Shown piece after piece: positions 51,779-64,000 of a DNA stretch of 64,000 nt. The notes beneath the pieces were generated by a model. It saw only the letters and a list, made by a program, of their open reading frames with translations, searched no databases and was not told where the DNA came from. The stretch spans positions 96,001 to 160,000 of the forward strand of contig JBDRCO010000023.1 in assembly GCA_043821645.1 (NCBI GenBank), given 5' to 3'. How positions within the stretch are numbered: position 1 is the stretch's first letter; every line of letters begins with the position of its first letter. The stretch is from Pseudomonadota bacterium (GTDB lineage Bacteria > Myxococcota > JACRCW01 > JAFGSX01). Both the position numbers and the translations under genes were made by a program.

Positions 51779-52981
51779 ATGAAAGCTGCTTCGAACGTCC
51801 CCCTGTTGCCCGCCCTCAAGCTCATGAGCTCGGACCTCCAGGTCACCGGCAAGGTGGTGTGGGGCCTGGCGATGCGCAAGATCATGCCCTTCTTGATCGA
51901 CCACGAGTTCGTGCGCGACGACAACGCCGAGATCGGGCTGGTCAGCATCAAGCTCACCGACATGTGCAACCTGCGCTGCCGCCCCTGCGCACAGTGGGGC
52001 GAGAACGGCTACAATCTTGGCCTGTCGATCAAGGACCTCAAGAAGAAGGAACTCCCCGCCGACGTGTACGCCAAGCTCGTCGACGACGTGGCGGCCTGGG
52101 GCACCAAGCCGCTATGGTACATCTGGGGCGGCGAGCCCTTCATGCACCGCGAGATCCTCGACATCACGGGATCCATCCGTCGCGCCGGCATGCACGGCGC
52201 CATCGTCACCAATGGCTACAAGGTCAAGGAGTCGGCGCGCACCCTGGTCGAGCAGGGCTGGGACCTGATGTACATGTCCCAGGACGGCACCCACGAGATC
52301 CACCGCGAGAACCGCCCCGGCGCCAACAGCAAGTTCGACAGCTACCAGATGATGCAGGACGGCGTGACCGAGCTGGTCGCCGAGCGCGGGCGCCTGGACA
52401 AGAAGTTCCCGGTGGTGCTGACCCTGACCTGCATCACCAGCATCAACCAGCACGATCTGCTCGAGACCATCCTCGATGCCCAGGCCATGGGCACCGACGC
52501 CATGGTCATGTACCCGGCCTGGTTCACCACCCTCGAGGACGGCCGCAAGCACGAGGCCGAGTTCGAGCGCCGCTTCGGCTTCAAACCTTTCATGTGGAAG
52601 GGCTACGTGGCCGATTGCCACGACGTGGATGTGCCGGCCCTGGTCGAGGAGCTCAAGCGCATCCAGGCCGATCCGCGGGTCAAGATCCCCTGGACGCTGA
52701 TGCCCGACATCTCCTTCGATCAGCTGGAGACCTACTACAAGGACCACGCGGATTTCCTGGGCTACGGCCAGTGCTTCTACCCGTGGACCTACGTCGAGAT
52801 CCAGCCCAACGGCGACGTGTCGACCTGCCGCGACTACGGCGACTACATCTGCGGCAACATCACCGAGGACAGCCTGGCCTCCATCTTCAACAACGAGAAG
52901 TACCAGGCCTTCCGCAAGTCCTTGCGCAAGGACGGCATGATGCCCATCTGTTCGCGCTGCTGCGGTCTGATGGGCTTCTAG
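51779..52981 (+). CDS. radical SAM protein with SPASM/twitch-type C-terminal domain
   Basis: CNLRCRPC, GGEPF, VTNG, S.DG; CFYPW...PNGDVSTC...CGNI...CSRCCG. Confidence 0.92.
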   Translation: MKAASNVPLLPALKLMSSDLQVTGKVVWGLAMRKIMPFLIDHEFVRDDNAEIGLVSIKLTDMCNLRCRPCAQWGENGYNLGLSIKDLKKKELPADVYAKLVDDVAAWGTKPLWYIWGGEPFMHREILDITGSIRRAGMHGAIVTNGYKVKESARTLVEQGWDLMYMSQDGTHEIHRENRPGANSKFDSYQMMQDGVTELVAERGRLDKKFPVVLTLTCITSINQHDLLETILDAQAMGTDAMVMYPAWFTTLEDGRKHEAEFERRFGFKPFMWKGYVADCHDVDVPALVEELKRIQADPRVKIPWTLMPDISFDQLETYYKDHADFLGYGQCFYPWTYVEIQPNGDVSTCRDYGDYICGNITEDSLASIFNNEKYQAFRKSLRKDGMMPICSRCCGLMGF

Positions 52982-55860: not shown

Positions 55861-58068
55861 ATGAGCCATGCAACATCCACCACCATCGAGATCGTGCACG
55901 TGATGTCCGGCGCCGACATCCTGCGCGCCGGCGAGGTGCAGCTGGCCCTGGGCTTTCCCGAGGAGGTGGTCAAGGCCTGGATGCGCGCGGGTCACAGCCC
56001 CAACGCCTGGCTGGTGCCAGACCGGCGCAGCGCCGACGGAGTGGTGCAGTGGGCCTTCGAGTTTCCGCTGTACTACGCGCTGTTCGTGCAGGGCCTGTTC
56101 ACCCGCGGAGAGAAGATCCCGGTGCTGGTCAAGGAACGCGACTGGACGGACCTGGTCGAATACCTGCGCCTGACCTTGCTCGGGCTCCGTGGCGACGAGA
56201 TGAAGCGCGAAGGCGTGCGCGCCCAGGTGGTGGAGCAGCTGACCCGAGAAGGAGCGGCCATGGCGCTCAAGCGCAGCGATGGCGAGATCGCGGGGATCGA
56301 GGATTTTCTGGAGCCACACTTCTTCGACGCCGAGGGCGTGGTCGAATACCTCGGCCTGCGCGTCAAGGCCCATGGCGACAACGTCTACTCCTACTACACC
56401 GAGGCTGATCGCCTGGAGGAGGTGCTGTTGCAGACGGGAGGGGCCGAGGCGCCGCCCTACAGCACGCCGCTGGCGCCGGCCACGGTACCGGTCATGCCGC
56501 AGCCCTTCGAGGTCATCACCCTGGGTTCATCGTCGGGCTTCGATCCGGCCAACCCCTGCACCAGCGTGCTGGTTCAGGCCCATGGCCGGTTCGTGCTGGT
56601 GGACTGCGGGCCCTACGTGCGAGCCCTGCTCCGCCACGCAGGTGTCAGCTTGCAGCAGATCCAGGCGCTCGTCGTCACCCATGCGCACGAGGATCATGCG
56701 GTGGGGCTGAGCGCCCTGCTCGACCTGACGCACCGCCTGCAGCTGTTCGTGACCCGCGAGACCGCAGCCATCTTGCGCCGCAAGCTGGCCATCCTGAACC
56801 CGCAGGTGAGCCGTCCCGAGCGCCTGCTCGACGACGCCTTTGACCTGGTCTACGTGGAACCGGGCCGGGAGGTGAGTTTTCTCGGACTCACGCTGCGCTT
56901 TCACTACACCATGCACGCCATCCCCTGCACCGGCGTCGAGCTCAGCATGCGAGTCGGCACGGAGATCAAGCGCGTCCTCGTGGTCGGCGACAACAACGCC
57001 CGCGCCAACATCGAGCAAGCCGCGACCCAGGGCGTGATCGATGCTGCCCGTCGCGACGAACTGCTGGCGCTGTACGCGTGGCAGGGTGATCTGCTCATCG
57101 CCGACGCCGGTGGCGGCCTGATTCACGGTGTTCCGGCCGACTTCGCGGGCAATCCATCGAGGGACGTGGTCTGCGTGCATACCGGCGCGCTCAAGCCAGA
57201 AGAAAGACACCTGTATACCCTGGCCGCACCAGGTCTCCGCTACACCCTGGTGTCGGAGCAGCGTGGTCCGACCCCCCTTGAGCGCGGGCTCGCCCATCGC
57301 GCCCTGAACGAGGCTTTCACCCAGAGCGCCTCGGCCTGGCTGGACGCCATGCTCGACGCTGCCGAGCCCCTGAGCGTCAACCGCGGCCAGATCGTGGTGC
57401 GCAACGGCGACAGCGGTCAGGACCTGTACGTCGCCTTGACCGGTGAACTGGCCGTGTTGATCGAGGAAGACGGCACGTCGCGCCAGGTCGCCACCGTGAA
57501 CGCCGGCGAGGTCTTTGGCGAGATGGCGGTCGTCAACAGCGCGCCGCGCTCTGCCACGGTGATGGCTCAGACACCGGCGCGCCTGCTGCGCATCCCGGGG
57601 GAGCTGTTCCACTGCTTCGTGGCCGACGCCAAGCTGACCGGAAGCCTGCCCGAGCTGTGGTCCAAGCGCCACGACCTCGAGCGCGTGACCGTGCTCTCCA
57701 ACGCCTCGGTGACGACCCGCAACCTGCTGGCGCGTGCGGCGGTTCGGCGGCAGGTGGAGCCCGGTGCCACCCTCATTCGCGAGGGTTCCCAGAGCGACAC
57801 GGTGTTCATCCTGGTGCAGGGCCGGGTCCAGGTCTACAAGGGCGCCGCGCCTCTGCTCGCGGGAGGCACGCCCATCATCGTCGAGCCGGGCTCCCTGATC
57901 GGTGAGACCGCGCCCTTTCTCAAGCAAGCGCGCAACGCCAGCATCGTGGCACTCGACGCGTGCGAGGTGCTGGCCATTCGCGGCAGTGACTTCAAGCGCG
58001 TGGTGCAGTGTGCTCCGCAACTGTTCCTGGCCATCTCGCGCGTGGTGCGCTCGCGCCAGGCAGCCTGA
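55861..58068 (+). CDS. MBL-fold metallo-hydrolase with two C-terminal cyclic-nucleotide-binding domains (putative cNMP-regulated phosphodiesterase)
   Basis: LGSSSGFDP, LVDCG, THAHEDH (HxHxDH), HAIPC, GD, IHG, VH; cNMP motifs FGEMA…PRSATV and IGETA…RNASIV. Confidence 0.87.
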   Translation: MSHATSTTIEIVHVMSGADILRAGEVQLALGFPEEVVKAWMRAGHSPNAWLVPDRRSADGVVQWAFEFPLYYALFVQGLFTRGEKIPVLVKERDWTDLVEYLRLTLLGLRGDEMKREGVRAQVVEQLTREGAAMALKRSDGEIAGIEDFLEPHFFDAEGVVEYLGLRVKAHGDNVYSYYTEADRLEEVLLQTGGAEAPPYSTPLAPATVPVMPQPFEVITLGSSSGFDPANPCTSVLVQAHGRFVLVDCGPYVRALLRHAGVSLQQIQALVVTHAHEDHAVGLSALLDLTHRLQLFVTRETAAILRRKLAILNPQVSRPERLLDDAFDLVYVEPGREVSFLGLTLRFHYTMHAIPCTGVELSMRVGTEIKRVLVVGDNNARANIEQAATQGVIDAARRDELLALYAWQGDLLIADAGGGLIHGVPADFAGNPSRDVVCVHTGALKPEERHLYTLAAPGLRYTLVSEQRGPTPLERGLAHRALNEAFTQSASAWLDAMLDAAEPLSVNRGQIVVRNGDSGQDLYVALTGELAVLIEEDGTSRQVATVNAGEVFGEMAVVNSAPRSATVMAQTPARLLRIPGELFHCFVADAKLTGSLPELWSKRHDLERVTVLSNASVTTRNLLARAAVRRQVEPGATLIREGSQSDTVFILVQGRVQVYKGAAPLLAGGTPIIVEPGSLIGETAPFLKQARNASIVALDACEVLAIRGSDFKRVVQCAPQLFLAISRVVRSRQAA

Positions 58069-58100: not shown

Positions 58101-59327
58101 ATGCAAACCGTGACCGCCGAACACGCCCTGGCTGTGACCACACAGGTCCAGATCCCGGGCGACGGAGAGGTGCTGCTACGCTGGCAGGCCTCGGGCTCGC
58201 CGTCCTCTTTGTGCGTGCTCATCATCCGCAGCGGCGCGGTGCCTGCTTACACCTCGATCGGTCTCACCGCGCAGAACACGTGTTACCACCTGCGCAACCT
58301 GAGCCGGCATCAGCGCTACATGGTTGCGGTGGCGGCCCTGGGTGGTGGACAGGTGGCTCTCAGTACCTGGACCTCGGTGACACCGCGCGCAGGCCTGCAC
58401 GCCCTGTGCAGCGACGACGGAAACGCTCTGACGCCACACCTCGCGCATGTGACCTCACTCTCCGCCATGCCTCAGGATCGCCGTCTCACCGCCTACTGGA
58501 AACTCTCGAGGGGCTTCGTCGACGGAGTGGTGGTCTCGCTGCACAGTGCAGGGCGCTGCCTCCACCGCTTCGAGCTGGAACCCGAAGTGGTCAGCCTGTC
58601 CCTGGACCAGGGTCGAGGTGTGGCGCTGCGCAATGGCGTGGACTACGAACTCCGCGTGCACAGCCGCTTCGCGGGTGTCGACGTACCTGGGCCCGAGGCG
58701 GTGACCTGCACACCCGCGGCCCAGGGTGAGGAGCGACAGGCGAACCGGAAGCACCCGCAGGCGAACCTGTTTTTCCCCTTTCTCTCCATCGACGCGGAGC
58801 TCAAGGTCTTCGACGACGACGGTTCCGATGAGGCCACGGCGCCGGCTCCTTTGCTGTGCCAGCACTGCCGCAAGCCTGTCTCCTGGGAGCGCTACGAACT
58901 GCGCTGCGTGGGCTGTGGTGCCGAGTACATCCCCAACAGCCTGGGCTCGGTCCTGGAGGTGCGCCGTCTGCGCTTTGGCACCTGCGCCTGTTGCTTGCCG
59001 CGGAGCATCCTGATCCAGAAGCGCGGCAGCACATCACTGACCTGCGCACAGTCCGGCAAGGAACACATCCGTACAGGCAGCGCGGGCTTTTCTCTCATCG
59101 AGGATCTCCCCCACGGCCTGTGCCAGTGCTGCCGGCCGCGCAGGCCCTTGCAGCGCAAGAGTGGAAAGGTGACCTGCAGCAAGACCGGCGAGCCGCACAG
59201 CAACCAGGACGGACGCTATGTGTTGGCGCCGACCCAGCCCGTCTTCGACGCTGCAGCCATCGACGCACTGCTCGATCAGGGGCTGGCGGAGATCTGCTCG
59301 ACGGGTGTCACGCGCGGTCGCCGCTGA
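58101..59327 (+). CDS. cytoplasmic protein: 2x fibronectin type III-like + CxxC Zn ribbon + 2x CxCC..C..H Zn-finger repeats
   Basis: PGDGEVLLRW…LRNL…Y.VAVAA and PQDRRLTAYW…LRNGVDYELRV; CQHC-x12-CVGC; CACC…C…H and CQCC…C…H; no signal peptide. Confidence 0.78.
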   Translation: MQTVTAEHALAVTTQVQIPGDGEVLLRWQASGSPSSLCVLIIRSGAVPAYTSIGLTAQNTCYHLRNLSRHQRYMVAVAALGGGQVALSTWTSVTPRAGLHALCSDDGNALTPHLAHVTSLSAMPQDRRLTAYWKLSRGFVDGVVVSLHSAGRCLHRFELEPEVVSLSLDQGRGVALRNGVDYELRVHSRFAGVDVPGPEAVTCTPAAQGEERQANRKHPQANLFFPFLSIDAELKVFDDDGSDEATAPAPLLCQHCRKPVSWERYELRCVGCGAEYIPNSLGSVLEVRRLRFGTCACCLPRSILIQKRGSTSLTCAQSGKEHIRTGSAGFSLIEDLPHGLCQCCRPRRPLQRKSGKVTCSKTGEPHSNQDGRYVLAPTQPVFDAAAIDALLDQGLAEICSTGVTRGRR

Positions 59328-59340
59328 ACAGCGCGGGGAG

Positions 59341-60849
59341 CTAAATGGGAGGAGGCAGGATGGGGAGGTCGAGTCGCCGGCGCTCGCTCCGCGCCACCGA
59401 GGCCTTGAGCGAGAAGTCTTGCTCGACCACCAGCTCGAGCTGGAGCGGGCCTGGGTTCTGCTGCAACCAGTCCGCCGGCACGCGAAGCAGGCCGACCAGC
59501 TCACGCTCGACGCTGTGCAGCTCGACAGCCTGGATCAGCCCCATCACCAGGTCCTGACCACGGGCCACCGGGGGGGATACGCTGGTGCCACGGCGGCAGG
59601 GCACACCCGTGTTTCGCGGTATGACCTCGTGCATGGCCCCACCTGGCAGCACCACGCCGATGGGTATCGAGACCACGTCGACCAGGTCAGGCCCAGCGGG
59701 CAGATCCATGGAGTGACCGAGGATGGCCGCACCGACGGCCACCGCGAGCTCGGGGTTGATGGCCTTCGTGGGATCGTTCTTGAACGCTGCAGACAGGCGG
59801 CGCTTGAGGGGCAGCATGCGCGTCTGGCCACCCACGAAGACCAGCTCATCCACGTCGTCACGCGTCATCCCGGCGTGCTTGAGCGCCTCGTCACAGGCGC
59901 CCAGGGTCCGCTCGATGAGGTTGGAAGTCAGGGTCTCCAGCGCATCGCGGATCAGCGTGTACTCGAAGTCCACGAACTGGCCATCAGCGCCGCTGCACAC
60001 GAAGGGGACGCGCAGCGTGGTCTCCTCCTGTGTCGACAGCGCGATCTTGGCGGCCTCGGCGGCCAGGAACACACGCTGCATGACCACCTTGTTGGACTGC
60101 ACATCCAGACCGCGAGCGACCTCGAAGCGCTCGATGAGCCTGCGACCTATCTGCTCGTCGAAGTCAGCGCCGCCCAGGAACGCGTCCCCACCTGTGGCGA
60201 GCACGCTGGCCAGGGCGCCGCGCACGGCCACCACGCTGACATCGAAGGTGCCACCTCCCAGATCGTAGATGAGCAGGGTTTGCTCTATTCCGCGCTTCTT
60301 GGCGGCGAACAGGGCAGCAGCGGTGGGCTCATTCACCAGGGCGCGGACCCGCAACCCCGCATCGCTGGCAGCTCGCGCCAGCTCTCGACGCTGGGTATAG
60401 CCGTAGTGCGCCGGCACCGTCAGCACGCAGTCCTCGAAGGGCGCGCCAGCGGCGGCCTGGGCCAGCTCGGCGATGCGGCGCAGCACCAGCGTGGCCACCT
60501 CTCGTAGATGGACCACCTGGCCATAGATCTCCACCGCGCACAGTCCGAGCTCATCTGGGACGAGGGGGTACAGGAAACGCTCGCGATGCCGCTGTACGAA
60601 GCTCGACTTGAGGGAGCGCCCGAGGAACCTTTTGAAGCCGTGGATGGTGTGCGTGGGGTCGTCGATGAGCTGGGTCCGTGCGTTGCTCCCGACGACGTGC
60701 TTGTCGCGTGCGCGGAACCAGACCACGGTGGGCAACACGGCGCTGCGCTCGCTCACAGGGACGACGCGCAAGGTGCGCTTGTGATCGATCCACGCGGCAC
60801 TGGTATTGGTGGTGCCGAAGTCGATACCCAGCACCGGTCGCGGCATCAT
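59341..60849 (-). CDS. atypical Hsp70-family protein (lidless, divergent substrate-binding domain)
   Basis: [45 protein letters not shown]. Confidence 0.88.
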   Translation of the reverse strand: MMPRPVLGIDFGTTNTSAAWIDHKRTLRVVPVSERSAVLPTVVWFRARDKHVVGSNARTQLIDDPTHTIHGFKRFLGRSLKSSFVQRHRERFLYPLVPDELGLCAVEIYGQVVHLREVATLVLRRIAELAQAAAGAPFEDCVLTVPAHYGYTQRRELARAASDAGLRVRALVNEPTAAALFAAKKRGIEQTLLIYDLGGGTFDVSVVAVRGALASVLATGGDAFLGGADFDEQIGRRLIERFEVARGLDVQSNKVVMQRVFLAAEAAKIALSTQEETTLRVPFVCSGADGQFVDFEYTLIRDALETLTSNLIERTLGACDEALKHAGMTRDDVDELVFVGGQTRMLPLKRRLSAAFKNDPTKAINPELAVAVGAAILGHSMDLPAGPDLVDVVSIPIGVVLPGGAMHEVIPRNTGVPCRRGTSVSPPVARGQDLVMGLIQAVELHSVERELVGLLRVPADWLQQNPGPLQLELVVEQDFSLKASVARSERRRLDLPILPPPI

Positions 60850-61065
60850 GGCGGGCTCAAGCTCCCTTCCAGAAACAAGTTCTCCCCGCGACAGCAGCGC
60901 CGGGACACACTCCCCTCCGTCGAGAATCGAACGCAGGGCCAAGGCCCGTCAACGTATTTCCCTCTTTCGGTGCAGCTGCACCCCGCTTCTGATCCACCCT
61001 GGCGCAGAGTGCCCGCAGGAGGCTCCGGTCCACGCGATGGCCCCTGCTTTTTTCTGCAACGGCGC

Positions 61066-61081
61066 TGGCACGACTCTCGCT
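61066..61081 (+). promoter_or_regulatory. putative sigma54 promoter of the E2-JAB-E1 operon
   Basis: TGGCAC-GACTC-TCGCT with exact -24/-12 spacing upstream of ATG 61208. Confidence 0.6.
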
Positions 61082-61207
61082 TCACCTGAATGCGAGGACA
61101 GCAGGAGAGCCGACAGCATCGTCGTCCTCCTGGCGAGGCGCCGCGAGTCTGGAGCGCCTGTCCCGCACAGCGCGCGCTCGACCTGGGTCGACGCCGAGGA
61201 GGATGCC

Positions 61208-61546
61208 ATGTCGCAAACCCTGACAACCCTGGAGCCTATGATCGCTGGCCTGGTTCGCGCGATCTGCACGTGCTGCACCGAGGCGCAGCCGTTGACAGGT
61301 CACCCCGACCTCGACGCCACACAGCTTCTCTGTCCCTCGACACGCTTGACCTACCTCGACCGTGGCGACGGCCTGTTCGAGCCCGATGGGGGACAGTTCA
61401 GCGTGACGGTCGTGCCTACCCAGGGAGCCACCGCGCAGACCGGCGCCGAACCCGATGTGCTGAGCGATAGACCGCGACGCACAGGCAGCAAGGTCAGGAT
61501 CGAGCTGGAACGCGCGACCTTTGCTGGTTTCCGCCGCGCGCGCTGA
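61208..61546 (+). CDS. small CxCC Zn-finger protein, candidate conjugated modifier or substrate
   Basis: GAGGAGG RBS; AICTCC…PL…LLCPST; flexible tail ending RATFAG-FRRAR. Confidence 0.72.
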   Translation: MSQTLTTLEPMIAGLVRAICTCCTEAQPLTGHPDLDATQLLCPSTRLTYLDRGDGLFEPDGGQFSVTVVPTQGATAQTGAEPDVLSDRPRRTGSKVRIELERATFAGFRRAR

Positions 61547-61573
61547 AGACCCCATCGGGGTGAGGAGGACGCC

Positions 61574-62284
61574 ATGGCCGACAAGCTGACCCAGCTCTTC
61601 CCGCGCCGCGTCGACGGGCAGATCACACACCGGACCTGGAGCGTGGACCTGGGCACGGCGCTTCACGTCAACGACCTCGGGGATGGCGGTGGGAGCAGAC
61701 TCCATCGTGAGGTGCAAGAGATGGCCGAGCACTTGCCTCGCTGGGTGCTCACCGTCGCCGAGAACAGCCAGCGGATACCCTGCCCCTCCTGTGGCGGCGT
61801 CCTAGTATTCGACCGGGGAATCCGCTGTGCCGAGTGCGAGCGGGCGCTGGCCAGCCGGCAGATCAAGCGCGGCTTCCTGCTGGCATGGTTCGGGCTGATG
61901 CCGCCCATCGGCATTGACGGTCTGGGCCGGCTCAAGGCTGCGGTGATCAAGCGCGCCCCGCCCCAGCACGTCGTCGGACAGCAGGCTGGAATCGGCCACT
62001 TCTTGCTGGTACCCCTGACCGCGATCTACCCGCCGGGTTTTCCGCACCGCCAGGTCAAGGTGGCCTACCTGCCGGGCTTCTTCAGCATGCCGGGTGTCCC
62101 GTCGACAGGCATGCGTCACGACATCCACATGCTGGACCAGGGTTTCATGTGTCTTTTCGCCGGAGGCCAGTGGCAACCCGAGATGAGTTGCCGCGAGGTG
62201 CTGCAGCAGCGCGCCTACGCGCACGTGGTCAAGCTTCTCAATTTCGGCAATGGCAAGAAGAACGCCTTTGCCAAGGTGAGCTGA
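61574..62284 (+). CDS. Zn-ribbon + E2/UBC-like (ubiquitin-conjugating-type) protein
   Basis: GAGGAGG RBS; CPSC-x11-CAEC; YPPGFP…V…HMLDQGFMCL…WQP…REVL matches the E2 core, with Cys at codon 62150-62152. Confidence 0.75.
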   Translation: MADKLTQLFPRRVDGQITHRTWSVDLGTALHVNDLGDGGGSRLHREVQEMAEHLPRWVLTVAENSQRIPCPSCGGVLVFDRGIRCAECERALASRQIKRGFLLAWFGLMPPIGIDGLGRLKAAVIKRAPPQHVVGQQAGIGHFLLVPLTAIYPPGFPHRQVKVAYLPGFFSMPGVPSTGMRHDIHMLDQGFMCLFAGGQWQPEMSCREVLQQRAYAHVVKLLNFGNGKKNAFAKVS

Positions 62285-63186
62285 TGCGTGCTCTGCCGCG
62301 AATGGAGATCGGGCGCCAGGTGTGGCGGCGCGTGGCGCGCGAACTGGACCGGGTTGCACCCGCCGAAGGGCTGGCCGTGCCCCTGCTCGCGCTGACACCG
62401 CGGGATGTGCAACGCAATCCGTGCACGACACTGCGCCTGGAAGATCTCGAAGTGGTCACCATTGCCCGTGCGGTTCTCGTGCCGCCCGAGCTCCAGCGCA
62501 ACCACCTGATGAGCGTGCGCGCACTGGGCAGTGCTGACGAGCGTGTCAATCGGGAGGTGGTCGGACTCGGACTTCGCTATCCCAGGCTACGGCCCGCTGG
62601 CCACCTTCACTCGCACCCCTTTGCCCGGGGGAACACCTGGCCGTCGAGCGGCCTCAGCGGGGATATCGACGGCCACATGCGGCCCCTGCTGGTGCACAAC
62701 AGCGACGCGGGCGTCGAGGTCAGCTTCAGCTTCATCGCCTGCCGCGATCAAACAGGCCAGAGCTGGGTACTGCAGGCCTTCTCCCTGGATGGCTCCGGGC
62801 AGGTGCACGACCTTGGCCCCTGCCAGGTCGTCGAGGATGAGGCACTGATCGCGCGCGGTCTCTTCACGCCAGGGACGGAGCGTCAGCCCTTGCTGCGAGG
62901 TCTCTGGCAATGCTGGGTCAGGGACCTGAGACGGCAGGGGTGGGCCTGCCGCTGCGCCACGCTCCTCGAAGGCTGGCAACGCTGCATCGTCGAGATGGGT
63001 CAGGGTCTGTGCGCCGTGTTCCTGCTCCCGATCGACTTCCCGGACCGGCCATGCCAGGTCCACGTGGTCATGGCGGGTTCCTCGCGGAGTGAGCGCTTTT
63101 TCACGCCTCACCTGCGGAGTCTGGACACCGATGCCTGGGTGCGGGTCGCCCTGGAAGTGGAGGTTGCCTGCCGTGCCGCAGCATGA
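62284..63186 (+). CDS. JAB/MPN+ (JAMM) metalloprotease fused to an E2/RWD-like C-terminal domain
   Basis: TGATG overlap with the upstream gene; PAEG (catalytic Glu), GHLHSHP…WPSS…GD; C-terminal FLLPIDFPDRP. Confidence 0.75.
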   Translation: MRALPRMEIGRQVWRRVARELDRVAPAEGLAVPLLALTPRDVQRNPCTTLRLEDLEVVTIARAVLVPPELQRNHLMSVRALGSADERVNREVVGLGLRYPRLRPAGHLHSHPFARGNTWPSSGLSGDIDGHMRPLLVHNSDAGVEVSFSFIACRDQTGQSWVLQAFSLDGSGQVHDLGPCQVVEDEALIARGLFTPGTERQPLLRGLWQCWVRDLRRQGWACRCATLLEGWQRCIVEMGQGLCAVFLLPIDFPDRPCQVHVVMAGSSRSERFFTPHLRSLDTDAWVRVALEVEVACRAAA

Positions 63187-64000
63187 CGACTACTTCGCCC
63201 GGGTTCGCCCCCTCCTCGGGGAGGGTCTTGCCAGGATGTGCATCGACGTCGACGACCTGTCCCTGTGCAGCAAGACCATCGCGCTGCTCGGCTCGTGCAT
63301 GCTGGGGTCCGTTCACGTCCGGGACACCCAGGAGGTGGCCAGATGGCCCCTCGTCGAACGGGCGCGATCCCCCTCGCCCGGTGCCGCACTCCCGCGTGCC
63401 ATCGACGTGCTGAAGACCGCTCTGGAGTGGAACAACCCGCAACACGCGGTGCATCTCGACGGAGATCCCGCATCGTCCATCCATCTTCGAGGGCAGCGCA
63501 CCGCAGCCGGGGGGACCTGTGCCGTGCACTGGGACCCCGAGGCTCGACGCTACACCCTGCTCGTTCCGGAAAAGGACACCTGGTCCTGGCACCTGGCCTC
63601 TTACCTGTCTGCCCTGGACCTCCGGGATCACCTTCTAAAAAGGCGAATCCTTCCCCCCGGGACACGTCACCTCGGACATCCATCCTGGCCCTTTGCGCAG
63701 TCCAGCGCGCCCGTGCCGTCGTGGTGGGGACCCCAGCTCCGCACCCAGACAGGCCATGTGATGGTGGTCGGCCTGGGCAGCGTGGGCAGCGAAGTGTTAC
63801 GGACCCTGTCGGGCGCCCCGCTGCGCTTCACCCTGGTCGACGACGGACACGTGAGCGCCTTCAATCTGGTCCGGCAGTGGTTCGGGGCCGAGGAGATCGG
63901 AGAGCACAAGGTCGAGGCGTTGGCCTCGCGCGTCGGTCGAGATCGTTGCCACGCCGTTCCGCTGGCGCTCGGACAGGGCAACCGGGTCCAGTTGCATCAG
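63173..64000 (+). CDS. ThiF/E1-like adenylating enzyme with a degenerate N-terminal ThiF-like domain (3' truncated)
   Basis: Not in the ORF track. GTG 63173 after GGAGGT, open to the window end; N-terminus DYFARVRPLLG; later HVMVVGLGSVGS…FTLVDDGHVSAFNLVRQ…IGEHKVEAL. Confidence 0.85.
   Translation, partial: MPQHDDYFARVRPLLGEGLARMCIDVDDLSLCSKTIALLGSCMLGSVHVRDTQEVARWPLVERARSPSPGAALPRAIDVLKTALEWNNPQHAVHLDGDPASSIHLRGQRTAAGGTCAVHWDPEARRYTLLVPEKDTWSWHLASYLSALDLRDHLLKRRILPPGTRHLGHPSWPFAQSSAPVPSWWGPQLRTQTGHVMVVGLGSVGSEVLRTLSGAPLRFTLVDDGHVSAFNLVRQWFGAEEIGEHKVEALASRVGRDRCHAVPLALGQGNRVQLHQ

Follow-up and report, generated by a model that had tools for sequence, protein, structure and literature searches.

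Bacterial operons that encode E1, E2 and JAB proteins are being studied actively, both as antiphage systems and for the origins of ubiquitination, and the locus described here raises the question of what such an operon conjugates when the protein in the place of the modifier does not resemble ubiquitin. It lies in a stretch of 64,000 nucleotides (the window: positions 96,001 to 160,000 of contig JBDRCO010000023.1, assembly GCA_043821645.1, placed by GTDB in the Myxococcota) and encodes, in this order, a metallo-beta-lactamase (MBL)-fold hydrolase with cyclic nucleoside monophosphate (cNMP)-binding domains, a protein with two fibronectin type III (FN3) domains followed by a predicted zinc-binding region (FN3-Zn), a small protein, an E2-like protein with an inserted zinc ribbon, a JAMM/JAB-type peptidase and a ThiF-type E1 (Table 1). 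A sequence-only reading of the window had noticed that FN3-Zn and the small protein carry the same unusual cysteine motif, CxCC followed by a distant Cys, and had proposed that FN3-Zn is an adaptor, an E3-like factor or a second substrate of the system. Having followed up this proposal, we hold it about evenly poised whether the small protein is a modifier outside the ubiquitin-like (Ubl) class, ending in Ala, whose CxCC head docks on FN3-Zn as a scaffold within an E1/E2/JAMM operon.

The CxCC strings quoted in that reading are indeed there (F292 to H366 of FN3-Zn correspond to nt 58974-59198), and their cysteines are conserved in 99 sequences of FN3-Zn and in 40 relatives of the small protein. 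FN3-Zn has 96 relatives at E<=0.01. In the alignment of 99 sequences twelve Cys are invariant, four in the canonical zinc ribbon and four in each of the CxCC units A and B; H366 of unit B and K320 of unit A (in SGKEH) are invariant among 26 sequences and at least 90% conserved among the 99. Among the 40 relatives of the small protein, C42 is invariant and the conservation of C20, C22 and C23 is 90% or more; of the 54 unique small proteins 53 carry CxCC, and the remaining one is N-terminally truncated. The putative ligand pattern of a unit is three invariant Cys in CxCC and one invariant Cys downstream, with a His or Tyr 7 residues after the last Cys.

Does this common pattern reflect common descent? 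The regular expression put forward for the three units matches only FN3-Zn and the small protein among the 63,081 six-frame open reading frames (ORFs) of the genome; since the expression was derived from these two ORFs, the match shows rarity and not significance. Within FN3-Zn, the hidden Markov model (HMM) of each unit finds the other one in the same set of ORFs (domain E 1.6e-4 and 0.0095) and hhalign aligns them with a probability of 97.6%; by these profiles, units A and B are clear duplicates. The small-protein unit compared with the window's own units gives a non-significant HMM E of 2.3. In hhalign it scores 23.9, a value attained by none of 100 full column shuffles but by 8 of 100 Cys-keeping ones, so that between these units alone the likeness goes little beyond the Cys pattern. 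Direct BLASTP of the small protein against FN3-Zn is too weak (E 0.04 over 19 residues), and hhalign of the whole alignments, superseded by the domain-level tests, gave a probability of 2.7%. On such figures the CxCC likeness could be convergent metal-binding chemistry, with the FN3 gene a mere neighbour.

A third, divergent family argues otherwise. We searched a profile of the Zn region against 1.84 billion representatives and obtained 96 proteins at E<=1e-3; only 6 are of the FN3-Zn type (E<1e-30), and one group is a family of short module proteins of ~230 residues. When the HMM of unit A from this short family is run on the ORFs of our genome, FN3-Zn is found at 1.3e-19, the small protein comes second at E 3e-4, and there is no third ORF at E<=10; with the HMM of unit B the small protein has an E of 0.0047 and the ORF after it one of 0.07. 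The head of the small protein aligns with unit A of the short family over 40 columns with an hhalign probability of 96.6% and a score of 43.7, which none of 100 Cys-keeping shuffles (maximum 23.1) and none of 40 full shuffles (maximum 15.7) attained. The units of FN3-Zn and that of the small protein are therefore, to judge from profiles linked by the short family, homologous, with a common pattern that reads roughly G.C.CC..P..L-(n)-CP.[ST]...YL...DG. The claim of one pattern in all three units stands in this indirect form, and not on the window units by themselves. Convergence, which also has to face the adjacency of the two genes in 15 of 15 loci across several phyla and the recurrence of the pair in a second operon type (see below), is already disfavoured, and we find it scarcely credible.

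As to the nature of the unit, strands follow each CxCC knuckle in the AlphaFold2 (AF2) models, the best structural match of the small head reaching only Z 4.1. One relative (P0138) has a unit with a plain CxxC...CxxC in the same frame, and in proteins that combine HEAT repeats, CxCC and a trypsin-like domain one unit is CxCC and the next a plain CxxC...CxxC ribbon, again in the same frame; since the plain ribbon takes the same frame in the latter proteins, the CxCC unit can be regarded as a zinc-ribbon variant. The best reading of the CxCC...C units is that they are copies of one undescribed, predicted zinc-ribbon-type domain, which would bind Zn. No model of Pfam, NCBIfam or PADLOC covers the Zn region of FN3-Zn, the small protein, the E2-like protein or the JAB peptidase; the sequence-only reading had not recognised CxCC as a named family. 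That reading had also seen a parallel between the ribbon of FN3-Zn and the one inserted in the E2-like protein. The parallel is real (hhalign probability 69.5%, score 22.3; 0 of 60 Cys-keeping shuffles, maximum 21.4) but generic, nothing specific, since both are ordinary CxxC-x12/13-CxxC ribbons.

What, then, is the small protein? In the AF2 model based on 40 sequences, the head has block-mean predicted local distance difference test (pLDDT) values of 86-90 over residues 21-60, with strands at 39-41, 47-51 and 57-63 and no helix. Past residue 63 there is no secondary structure, and from residue 61 the block means are mostly low (64, 46, 65, 76, 61 and 57). According to this model the small protein is a Zn-ribbon head with a disordered tail and has no beta-grasp, so that the idea of an ordinary Ubl-like substrate had to be given up. 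No fold can be named with confidence, because Foldseek gave no match at E<=1e-3 and the best VIA match of the head, 2jny, lies below the safe line (Z 4.1, rmsd, i.e. root-mean-square deviation, 4.2, 59 of 61 residues); Foldseek lists the Trm112-like/UPF0434 structures 2kpi, 2hf1, 2js4 and 2pk7 at E 5 to 8.

The LERATFA end of the small protein is kept (as LE.ATFA) in 54 of 54 unique sequences, 22 of which stop at that very Ala, whereas the others continue with tails of 1-45 residues that begin with G in 14 sequences, with A in 11, with C, N or S in 2 each and with R in 1. A conserved C-terminal Gly or Gly-Gly, as expected of a Ubl, is not what we observed, Gly following ATFA in only 14 of the 54; we propose that Ala106 is the mature C-terminus. 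The sequence-only reading had seen a Gly plus a basic tail on both CxCC proteins, and this did not hold for FN3-Zn either: the Gly of its 'RG-RR' varies (G, A, R, S) and its invariant Gly is G402, in TG[VI]S. In every architecture examined (P0148, P0171, P0142, P0146, P0165, P0198) the full Zn module closes with one and the same helix motif, (I/L)(D/E/N).AL..G; behind it comes an invariant Gly, which is G402 in FN3-Zn and that of GLFD in the short family, and in many cases a basic tail. G402 as the site of a processed precursor was considered and rejected, the residues after the Gly being conserved per family (GVSR; GLFD).

The gene neighbourhood bears on both proteins. We scanned one genome per species and obtained 15 loci with a relative of FN3-Zn (L001-L015, window not counted), from Myxococcota and 'Deltaproteobacteria' metagenome-assembled genomes (MAGs), one Riflebacteria MAG and one Schekmanbacteria MAG. 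These type I operons have the genes for MBL/cNMP, FN3-Zn, small protein, E2, JAB and E1 colinear on one strand. The small gene follows FN3-Zn directly in 15/15 loci, E2 is present in 14/15, JAB in 13/15, E1 in 12/15 and MBL/cNMP in 13/15, each missing gene falling at a contig end (the two contigs that lack MBL begin inside FN3-Zn). The system is sparse in its phylum: it was detected in 9 of 401 sampled genomes with the whole protein as query and in 10 of 401 with the Zn module.

By way of the short module family we reached a type II operon, in two metagenome loci, L017 and L018. On one strand, L017 encodes an Hsp70-like protein, a 267-residue protein, the short module protein, a CxCC protein of 76 residues (..ACTCCAEPRPL..C.VTG.LY..), an E2-like protein with the inserted ribbon and the H..H...C motif of type I, and a ThiF E1; L018 is shorter and repeats this order until its contig ends after E2. 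No JAB was seen in L017 before the contig end, and no MBL gene on the type II contigs seen. BLASTP aligns the type I and type II small proteins from end to end (3e-6) and gives 1e-22 for the E2-like proteins; both type II small proteins are tail-less and end in ..RIDLSRSGYA (..VRIDLSRSGYA in L017). Since both operon types keep them, the module protein, the small CxCC protein, the Zn-ribbon E2 and the E1 form the common core; by gene content, MBL/cNMP, JAB, Hsp70 and the 267-residue protein would be type-specific additions. That FN3-Zn belongs to the conjugation operon, as first proposed, is thus upheld by the synteny in 15/15 loci, by the type II core and, weakly, by a docking score of 0.55 (see below). 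The 267-residue protein, without a Pfam family, stands upstream of the short module gene with 82% identity between L017:3216-4019 (+) and L018:1033-1818, and no relative of it was found in the genome of the window.

The small protein is read as a modifier because the order small-E2-JAB-E1 is that of Ubl-E2-DUB-E1 (DUB, deubiquitinase) in Bil operons and because the tail pattern is alike; by this analogy it looks like a modifier sitting where BilA, the Ubl, sits. Among 17 E2-like sequences from both operon types H182, H185, C193 (nt 62150-62152), F195, A196 and W200 are invariant, so that a candidate catalytic Cys follows an HPN-like motif in both types. Of the 19 matches at E<=10 in the PDB, 13 are E2 enzymes (best E 0.11), with weak colinear matches to UBC9, E2 G2 and E2 D2; Pfam UQ_con matches 1 of the 17 members at E 0.049, the lone PADLOC row is PDC-S64 at E 0.086, and the ESM Atlas was uninformative (model pLDDT 0.31, feature matches 0.77). 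In the JAMM protein E25, H106-S-H108-P, S118 and D124 are invariant among 12 sequences and make up the metal-binding motif, the Sx2D spacing being seen in sequences without a 3-residue insert; no library model matched, and the PDB profile search gave an unrelated match at E 0.24.

The E1 is recognised by Pfam ThiF (4.9e-11, 42.7 bits against a cut-off of 28.1), and thus has the adenylation domain, preceded by an extra N-terminal domain of ~200 residues. Its profile matches in the PDB include TcdA (7e-10), MoeB (3e-8), UBA7, ATG7, NAE1 and Cap2. A Cys between two invariant CxxC pairs is itself invariant (C453 in the protein of locus L003) and may be the catalytic Cys of the E1.

By sequence, the solved proteins nearest to the adenylation domain are TcdA, MoeB, ThiF and MccB, and MccB acts on a peptide C-terminus; the small protein might accordingly be a carrier of an acyl-adenylate or thiocarboxylate (like ThiS or MoaD, or a peptide substrate of the MccB type) that is never conjugated to a protein. 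The conserved E2-like gene with its invariant Cys, the JAMM peptidase and the Bil-like gene order all speak against such a carrier, and neither Pfam nor NCBIfam recognised a rhodanese or any other sulfur-transfer domain in the E1; we therefore consider it very unlikely.

The partner proposed for the small protein, FN3-Zn, shows no family over cut-off in Pfam, NCBIfam or PADLOC (Pfam fn3 gives E 0.075 and 13.7 bits, below the cut-off of 25). Its AF2 model, built from 99 sequences, has a mean pLDDT of 90.0 and a predicted template modelling score (pTM) of 0.84, with two beta sandwiches, a low-confidence linker and then the Zn region at pLDDT ~88-97. Foldseek matches the model to fibronectin 12-14 at E 1.3e-8, and VIA matches residues 12-96 (Z 11.5, rmsd 1.9 over 85 residues) and 111-208 (Z 11.6, rmsd 2.2 over 92 residues) to FN3 domains; the two N-terminal domains are, in the model, FN3-type beta sandwiches. 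The fold search of the whole model listed FN3 matches only, and this list thus covers the FN3 part and not the Zn region, in which short strands follow each knuckle and the ribbon has strands at 259-263 and 266-269. The C-terminal helix (384-392) is modelled at pLDDT 53-65.

We predicted the complex of FN3-Zn residues 240-408 with the small protein and obtained a median score of 0.55 (runs 0.53, 0.56 and 0.55), the best of 3 controls scoring 0.00; the runs have at least 89% of their contacts in common, and the partner has a pLDDT of at least 63. The mark used is reached by 58 of 80 solved complexes and by 2 of 110 mismatched pairs, and scores of up to 0.60 comprise 7 of the 80 solved complexes and both passing mismatches, so that 0.55 falls in a band that is 'more often wrong than right unless the guess was likely beforehand'. 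A docking of the small-protein head on the tandem units was suggested by the domain common to both proteins, and the prediction lends weak support to it.

The same synteny and the same weak complex support would serve equally well if FN3-Zn were a dedicated acceptor, modified on a lysine of its own, the CxCC units only bringing substrate and tag together. For such a role K320, with its strong conservation, would be a candidate, and no RING or HECT-like feature was seen in FN3-Zn by Pfam. The position of K320 is not kept in the short family, however, where unit A reads CP.SG..YLLLPDG, and an N-terminal part that varies between FN3, HEAT and nothing suits a recognition scaffold better than a fixed target. 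We regard a dedicated acceptor as unlikely; FN3-Zn may act as an adaptor, an E3-like factor or an acceptor.

A different candidate for the conjugated protein, and the main rival in this respect, is the MBL/cNMP enzyme itself. It ends in ..R.AA in 12 of 13 sequences including that of the window (58063-58065), with no variable tail, and this Ala-Ala end may itself be functional, e.g. as an E1 substrate as in CBASS (cyclic-oligonucleotide-based antiphage signalling system) or 6A-MBL. According to the excerpts of Ye et al. (PMC11601596) used here, it is their own signalling enzymes that the pathways of Type II CBASS, Pycsar and MBL conjugate, and the best NCBIfam match of our E1 is 6A-MBL cap2_3, though at 35.7 bits, far under the cut-off of 320. 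The small protein and FN3-Zn would then be targets or regulators. What makes us consider this distinctly unlikely is that the type II operons keep the small protein, the module and the E2 (with the E1 in L017) with no MBL gene on the contigs seen, that E2 and E1 are separate genes here with no Cap2-type fusion, and that the pattern of tail and JAMM belongs to the small protein and not to the MBL protein.

The module is also found outside conjugation operons. At 50% identity its family has 96 representatives, joined to FN3, HEAT or trypsin-like domains. Pfam, run on 40 of the 90 that are not of the FN3-Zn type, gave HEAT repeats as the sole family in 16, Trypsin_2 (alone or along with HEAT) in 7, fn3 in 4 and no family in 13; a family of ~700 residues with HEAT and the module exists among these relatives, and the match of Pfam Trm112p to a short module protein (E 0.049) is below significance. 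Two proteins, L016:7279-9753 (-) and L019:6267-8804 (+), of 824 and 845 residues, have HEAT repeats, a CxCC unit, a CxxC..CxxC unit and a C-terminal trypsin-like peptidase; the neighbours in L016 are MoxR-type AAA, DUF5682, DUF5691 and SWIM genes, a MoxR-type conflict-system setting.

Putting these elements together, we propose that the small protein fills the slot of the Ubl modifier, its disordered tail ending in the invariant ...LERATFA. The JAMM peptidase would trim the extra residues (GFRRAR here) and expose Ala106, the ThiF E1 would adenylate this terminal Ala, and the small protein would be carried by Cys193 of the Zn-ribbon E2 before its attachment to a target. Trimming by the JAMM would fit the tail-less small proteins of type II, where no JAB was seen (n=2, short contigs). 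The CxCC head would dock on the homologous units of FN3-Zn, which would be a scaffold or E3-like adaptor, or the first acceptor, and the variable N-terminal part of the module protein (FN3 here, HEAT or nothing elsewhere) would choose the partner; in type I operons the MBL/cNMP enzyme would serve as a regulated output or input.

Several points weigh against this reading, in addition to the low band of the docking score and the non-significant likeness of the units within the window. Every biochemical step is a prediction from sequences and models, and a terminal Ala, instead of Gly, is unusual for an E1 substrate. The E2 assignment comes from motifs, position and sub-threshold matches, and the MBL/cNMP protein with its conserved Ala-Ala end could be the true substrate of the E1. 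Type II is known from two loci only, both on short contigs. Lastly, in both HEAT-CxCC-trypsin loci (L016 and L019, 2/2) there was no E1, E2, JAB or second CxCC gene in the stretch fetched, and the domain is consequently not specific to conjugation; the sequence-only reading had named an occurrence apart from E1/E2/JAB genes as what would speak against it, and these two loci partly bear this out. A still bolder form of the proposal is a 'ubiquitination' without ubiquitin, in which a CxCC-headed, disordered-tailed protein of ~100 residues with an ...ATFA-COOH end is activated by the E1, carried by the Zn-ribbon E2, trimmed or removed by the JAMM and attached to proteins, its head being read by tandem copies on a modular scaffold (FN3, HEAT or the bare module); we advance it tentatively, with a little less than even confidence.

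Table 1. Features of the locus, numbered in window coordinates (all on the + strand except the Hsp70-like gene)
Feature	Position	Strand	Details
MBL-fold hydrolase with two cNMP-binding domains	55861..58068	+	Pfam Lactamase_B_2 4.4e-12; cNMP_binding 9.7e-36, 2 stretches
FN3-Zn 'module' protein, 408 aa	58101..59327	+	two FN3, zinc ribbon, two CxCC units, C-terminal helix
Tandem FN3 pair of FN3-Zn	58122..58730	+	residues ~8-97 and 109-210
Canonical zinc ribbon of FN3-Zn	58857..58916	+	CxxC-x12-CxxC: C253, C256, C269, C272
CxCC unit A of FN3-Zn	58956..59090	+	residues 286-330: C295, C297, C298, C315
CxCC unit B of FN3-Zn	59091..59228	+	residues 331-376: C341, C343, C344, C359, H366
C-terminal helix and motif of FN3-Zn	59229..59324	+	..FDAAAID.LLD.GLAEI..TG[VI]S.., then variable basic tail; invariant G402
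Hsp70-like gene, 533 aa, between FN3-Zn and small gene	59341-60942	-	Pfam HSP70 1.2e-99
Small protein, 112 aa	61208..61546	+	CxCC unit, disordered linker (predicted), C-terminal K.RI.LERATFA, here then GFRRAR tail
CxCC unit of small protein	61235..61393	+	residues 10-62: C20, C22, C23, C42; invariant DRGDG at 51-55
Invariant C-terminal motif of small protein	61490..61525	+	K95-A106 (KVRIELERATFA)
E2-like protein, 236 aa	61574..62284	+	inserted zinc ribbon C70, C73, C85, C88 = nt 61781-61837
JAMM/JAB-type peptidase	62284..63186	+	residue numbers counted from nt 62293
ThiF-type E1, 522 aa in full	63089..64000, on to window coordinate 64657 in contig	+	

Some features of the window stand beside the operon. 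The start codon of the JAB gene (ATG, 62284-62286) overlaps the stop of E2 and the frame of E1 overlaps the end of JAB (~63089-63186), which suggests translational coupling. The Hsp70-like protein falls under the NCBIfam cut-offs for DnaK, and the genome has at least 10 Hsp70 paralogs, one of them, on contig C113, with 61% identity. It was considered as a part of the system, given that L017 begins with an Hsp70-like gene, and rejected: it is 32% identical to the Hsp70 of L017, whose best match among the paralogs of this genome is another protein, the window copy ranking 9th, and since 0 of 15 type I loci have an Hsp70 gene we take the window copy as an insertion peculiar to this genome. An ORF of 400 residues at 51779-52981 (+) resembles a radical SAM enzyme and contains the motif CNLRCRPC; by tblastn 0 of 15 related loci have a relative of it, which places it outside the operon.

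Should the proposal be right, a Zn-ribbon-headed, disordered, Ala-terminated protein in the 'Ubl slot' would widen the range of cargo of E1/E2 cascades. It would represent a new class of prokaryotic modifier with a built-in reader domain, in at least two operon types and several phyla, and the head with its reader module would be a compact, testable pair for the study of target choice in bacterial conjugation. Naming the Zn module family would moreover annotate many 'hypothetical' proteins. The conjugation machinery is of a known kind, and the modifier, the reader module and the make-up of the operon are undescribed: full-text searches, with subscription-only papers and supplements outside their scope, gave no account of this operon or domain. 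The comparisons with other conjugation systems below draw on excerpts of the cited papers.

Two likenesses concern the CxCC unit alone. The best structural match of the small head is to Trm112-like/UPF0434 zinc ribbons, all matches being under significance; that family is not known to have a CxCC knuckle, a DRGDG motif or a long conserved tail. The GTPases of COG0523 (CobW/ZigA/ZNG1) likewise have a Zn-binding CxCC motif, but their fold (G3E GTPase) and context are unrelated, and no GTPase domain was found here by Pfam.

In all characterised cases described in these excerpts the conjugated protein is either a beta-grasp Ubl, as in Bil and Bub, or a signalling enzyme from the operon itself, as in Type II CBASS and, according to Ye et al., in Pycsar and MBL pathways. 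In Type II CBASS and 6A-MBL systems the C-terminus of a non-Ubl protein is the E1 substrate, as proposed here, and an MBL-fold protein and a JAB peptidase are present (PMC1779556, PMC11601596). Rows 6a-6e of Iyer et al. 2006 (PMC1779556) show other architectures than this operon, the closest being row 6a, an E2-E1-JAB fusion adjoining MBL. In our locus, by contrast, E2, JAB and E1 are encoded separately, by three genes whose order differs, with no fused Cap2-type protein, the MBL protein has two cNMP-binding domains, and the small CxCC and FN3-Zn proteins have no counterpart in those systems.

BilABCD, the Type I/II Bil antiphage operons, has the same order of modifier, E2, JAB and E1, with E2 and E1 separate, and in its E1, too, the adenylation domain is preceded by an extra N-terminal domain (PMC10557695). 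In the Bil modifier, as in the small protein, a variable tail that a JAB peptidase would remove comes after a conserved C-terminal residue (PMC10557695); the preprint of Chambers et al. gives up to nine non-conserved residues for it (PMC10557695). Unlike BilABCD, the putative modifier here is predicted to have a Zn-ribbon head and a disordered tail in place of a beta-grasp, its conserved end is the Ala of ..ATFA and not Gly, the E2 carries an inserted zinc ribbon, and FN3-Zn and MBL/cNMP are extra conserved genes.

Effector-associated adaptor domains (EADs) offer the third comparison. The CxCC domain is of a Cys-rich zinc-ribbon type and is none of the EADs named in the excerpts of PMC7159879, and its homotypic binding is seen only weakly in silico. 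In EAD conflict systems, nevertheless, a single small domain likewise sits on two proteins of the same operon, one of them the conjugated moiety (PMC7159879): in EAD1 systems 'the Ubl is coupled to an N-terminal EAD1' and the effector is fused to EAD1 as well (Kaur et al. 2020, PMC7159879). The HEAT-CxCC-trypsin relatives likewise adjoin MoxR-type AAA genes, and in both of our operon types it is the CxCC unit that is carried by two proteins of one operon, the small protein and the module protein.

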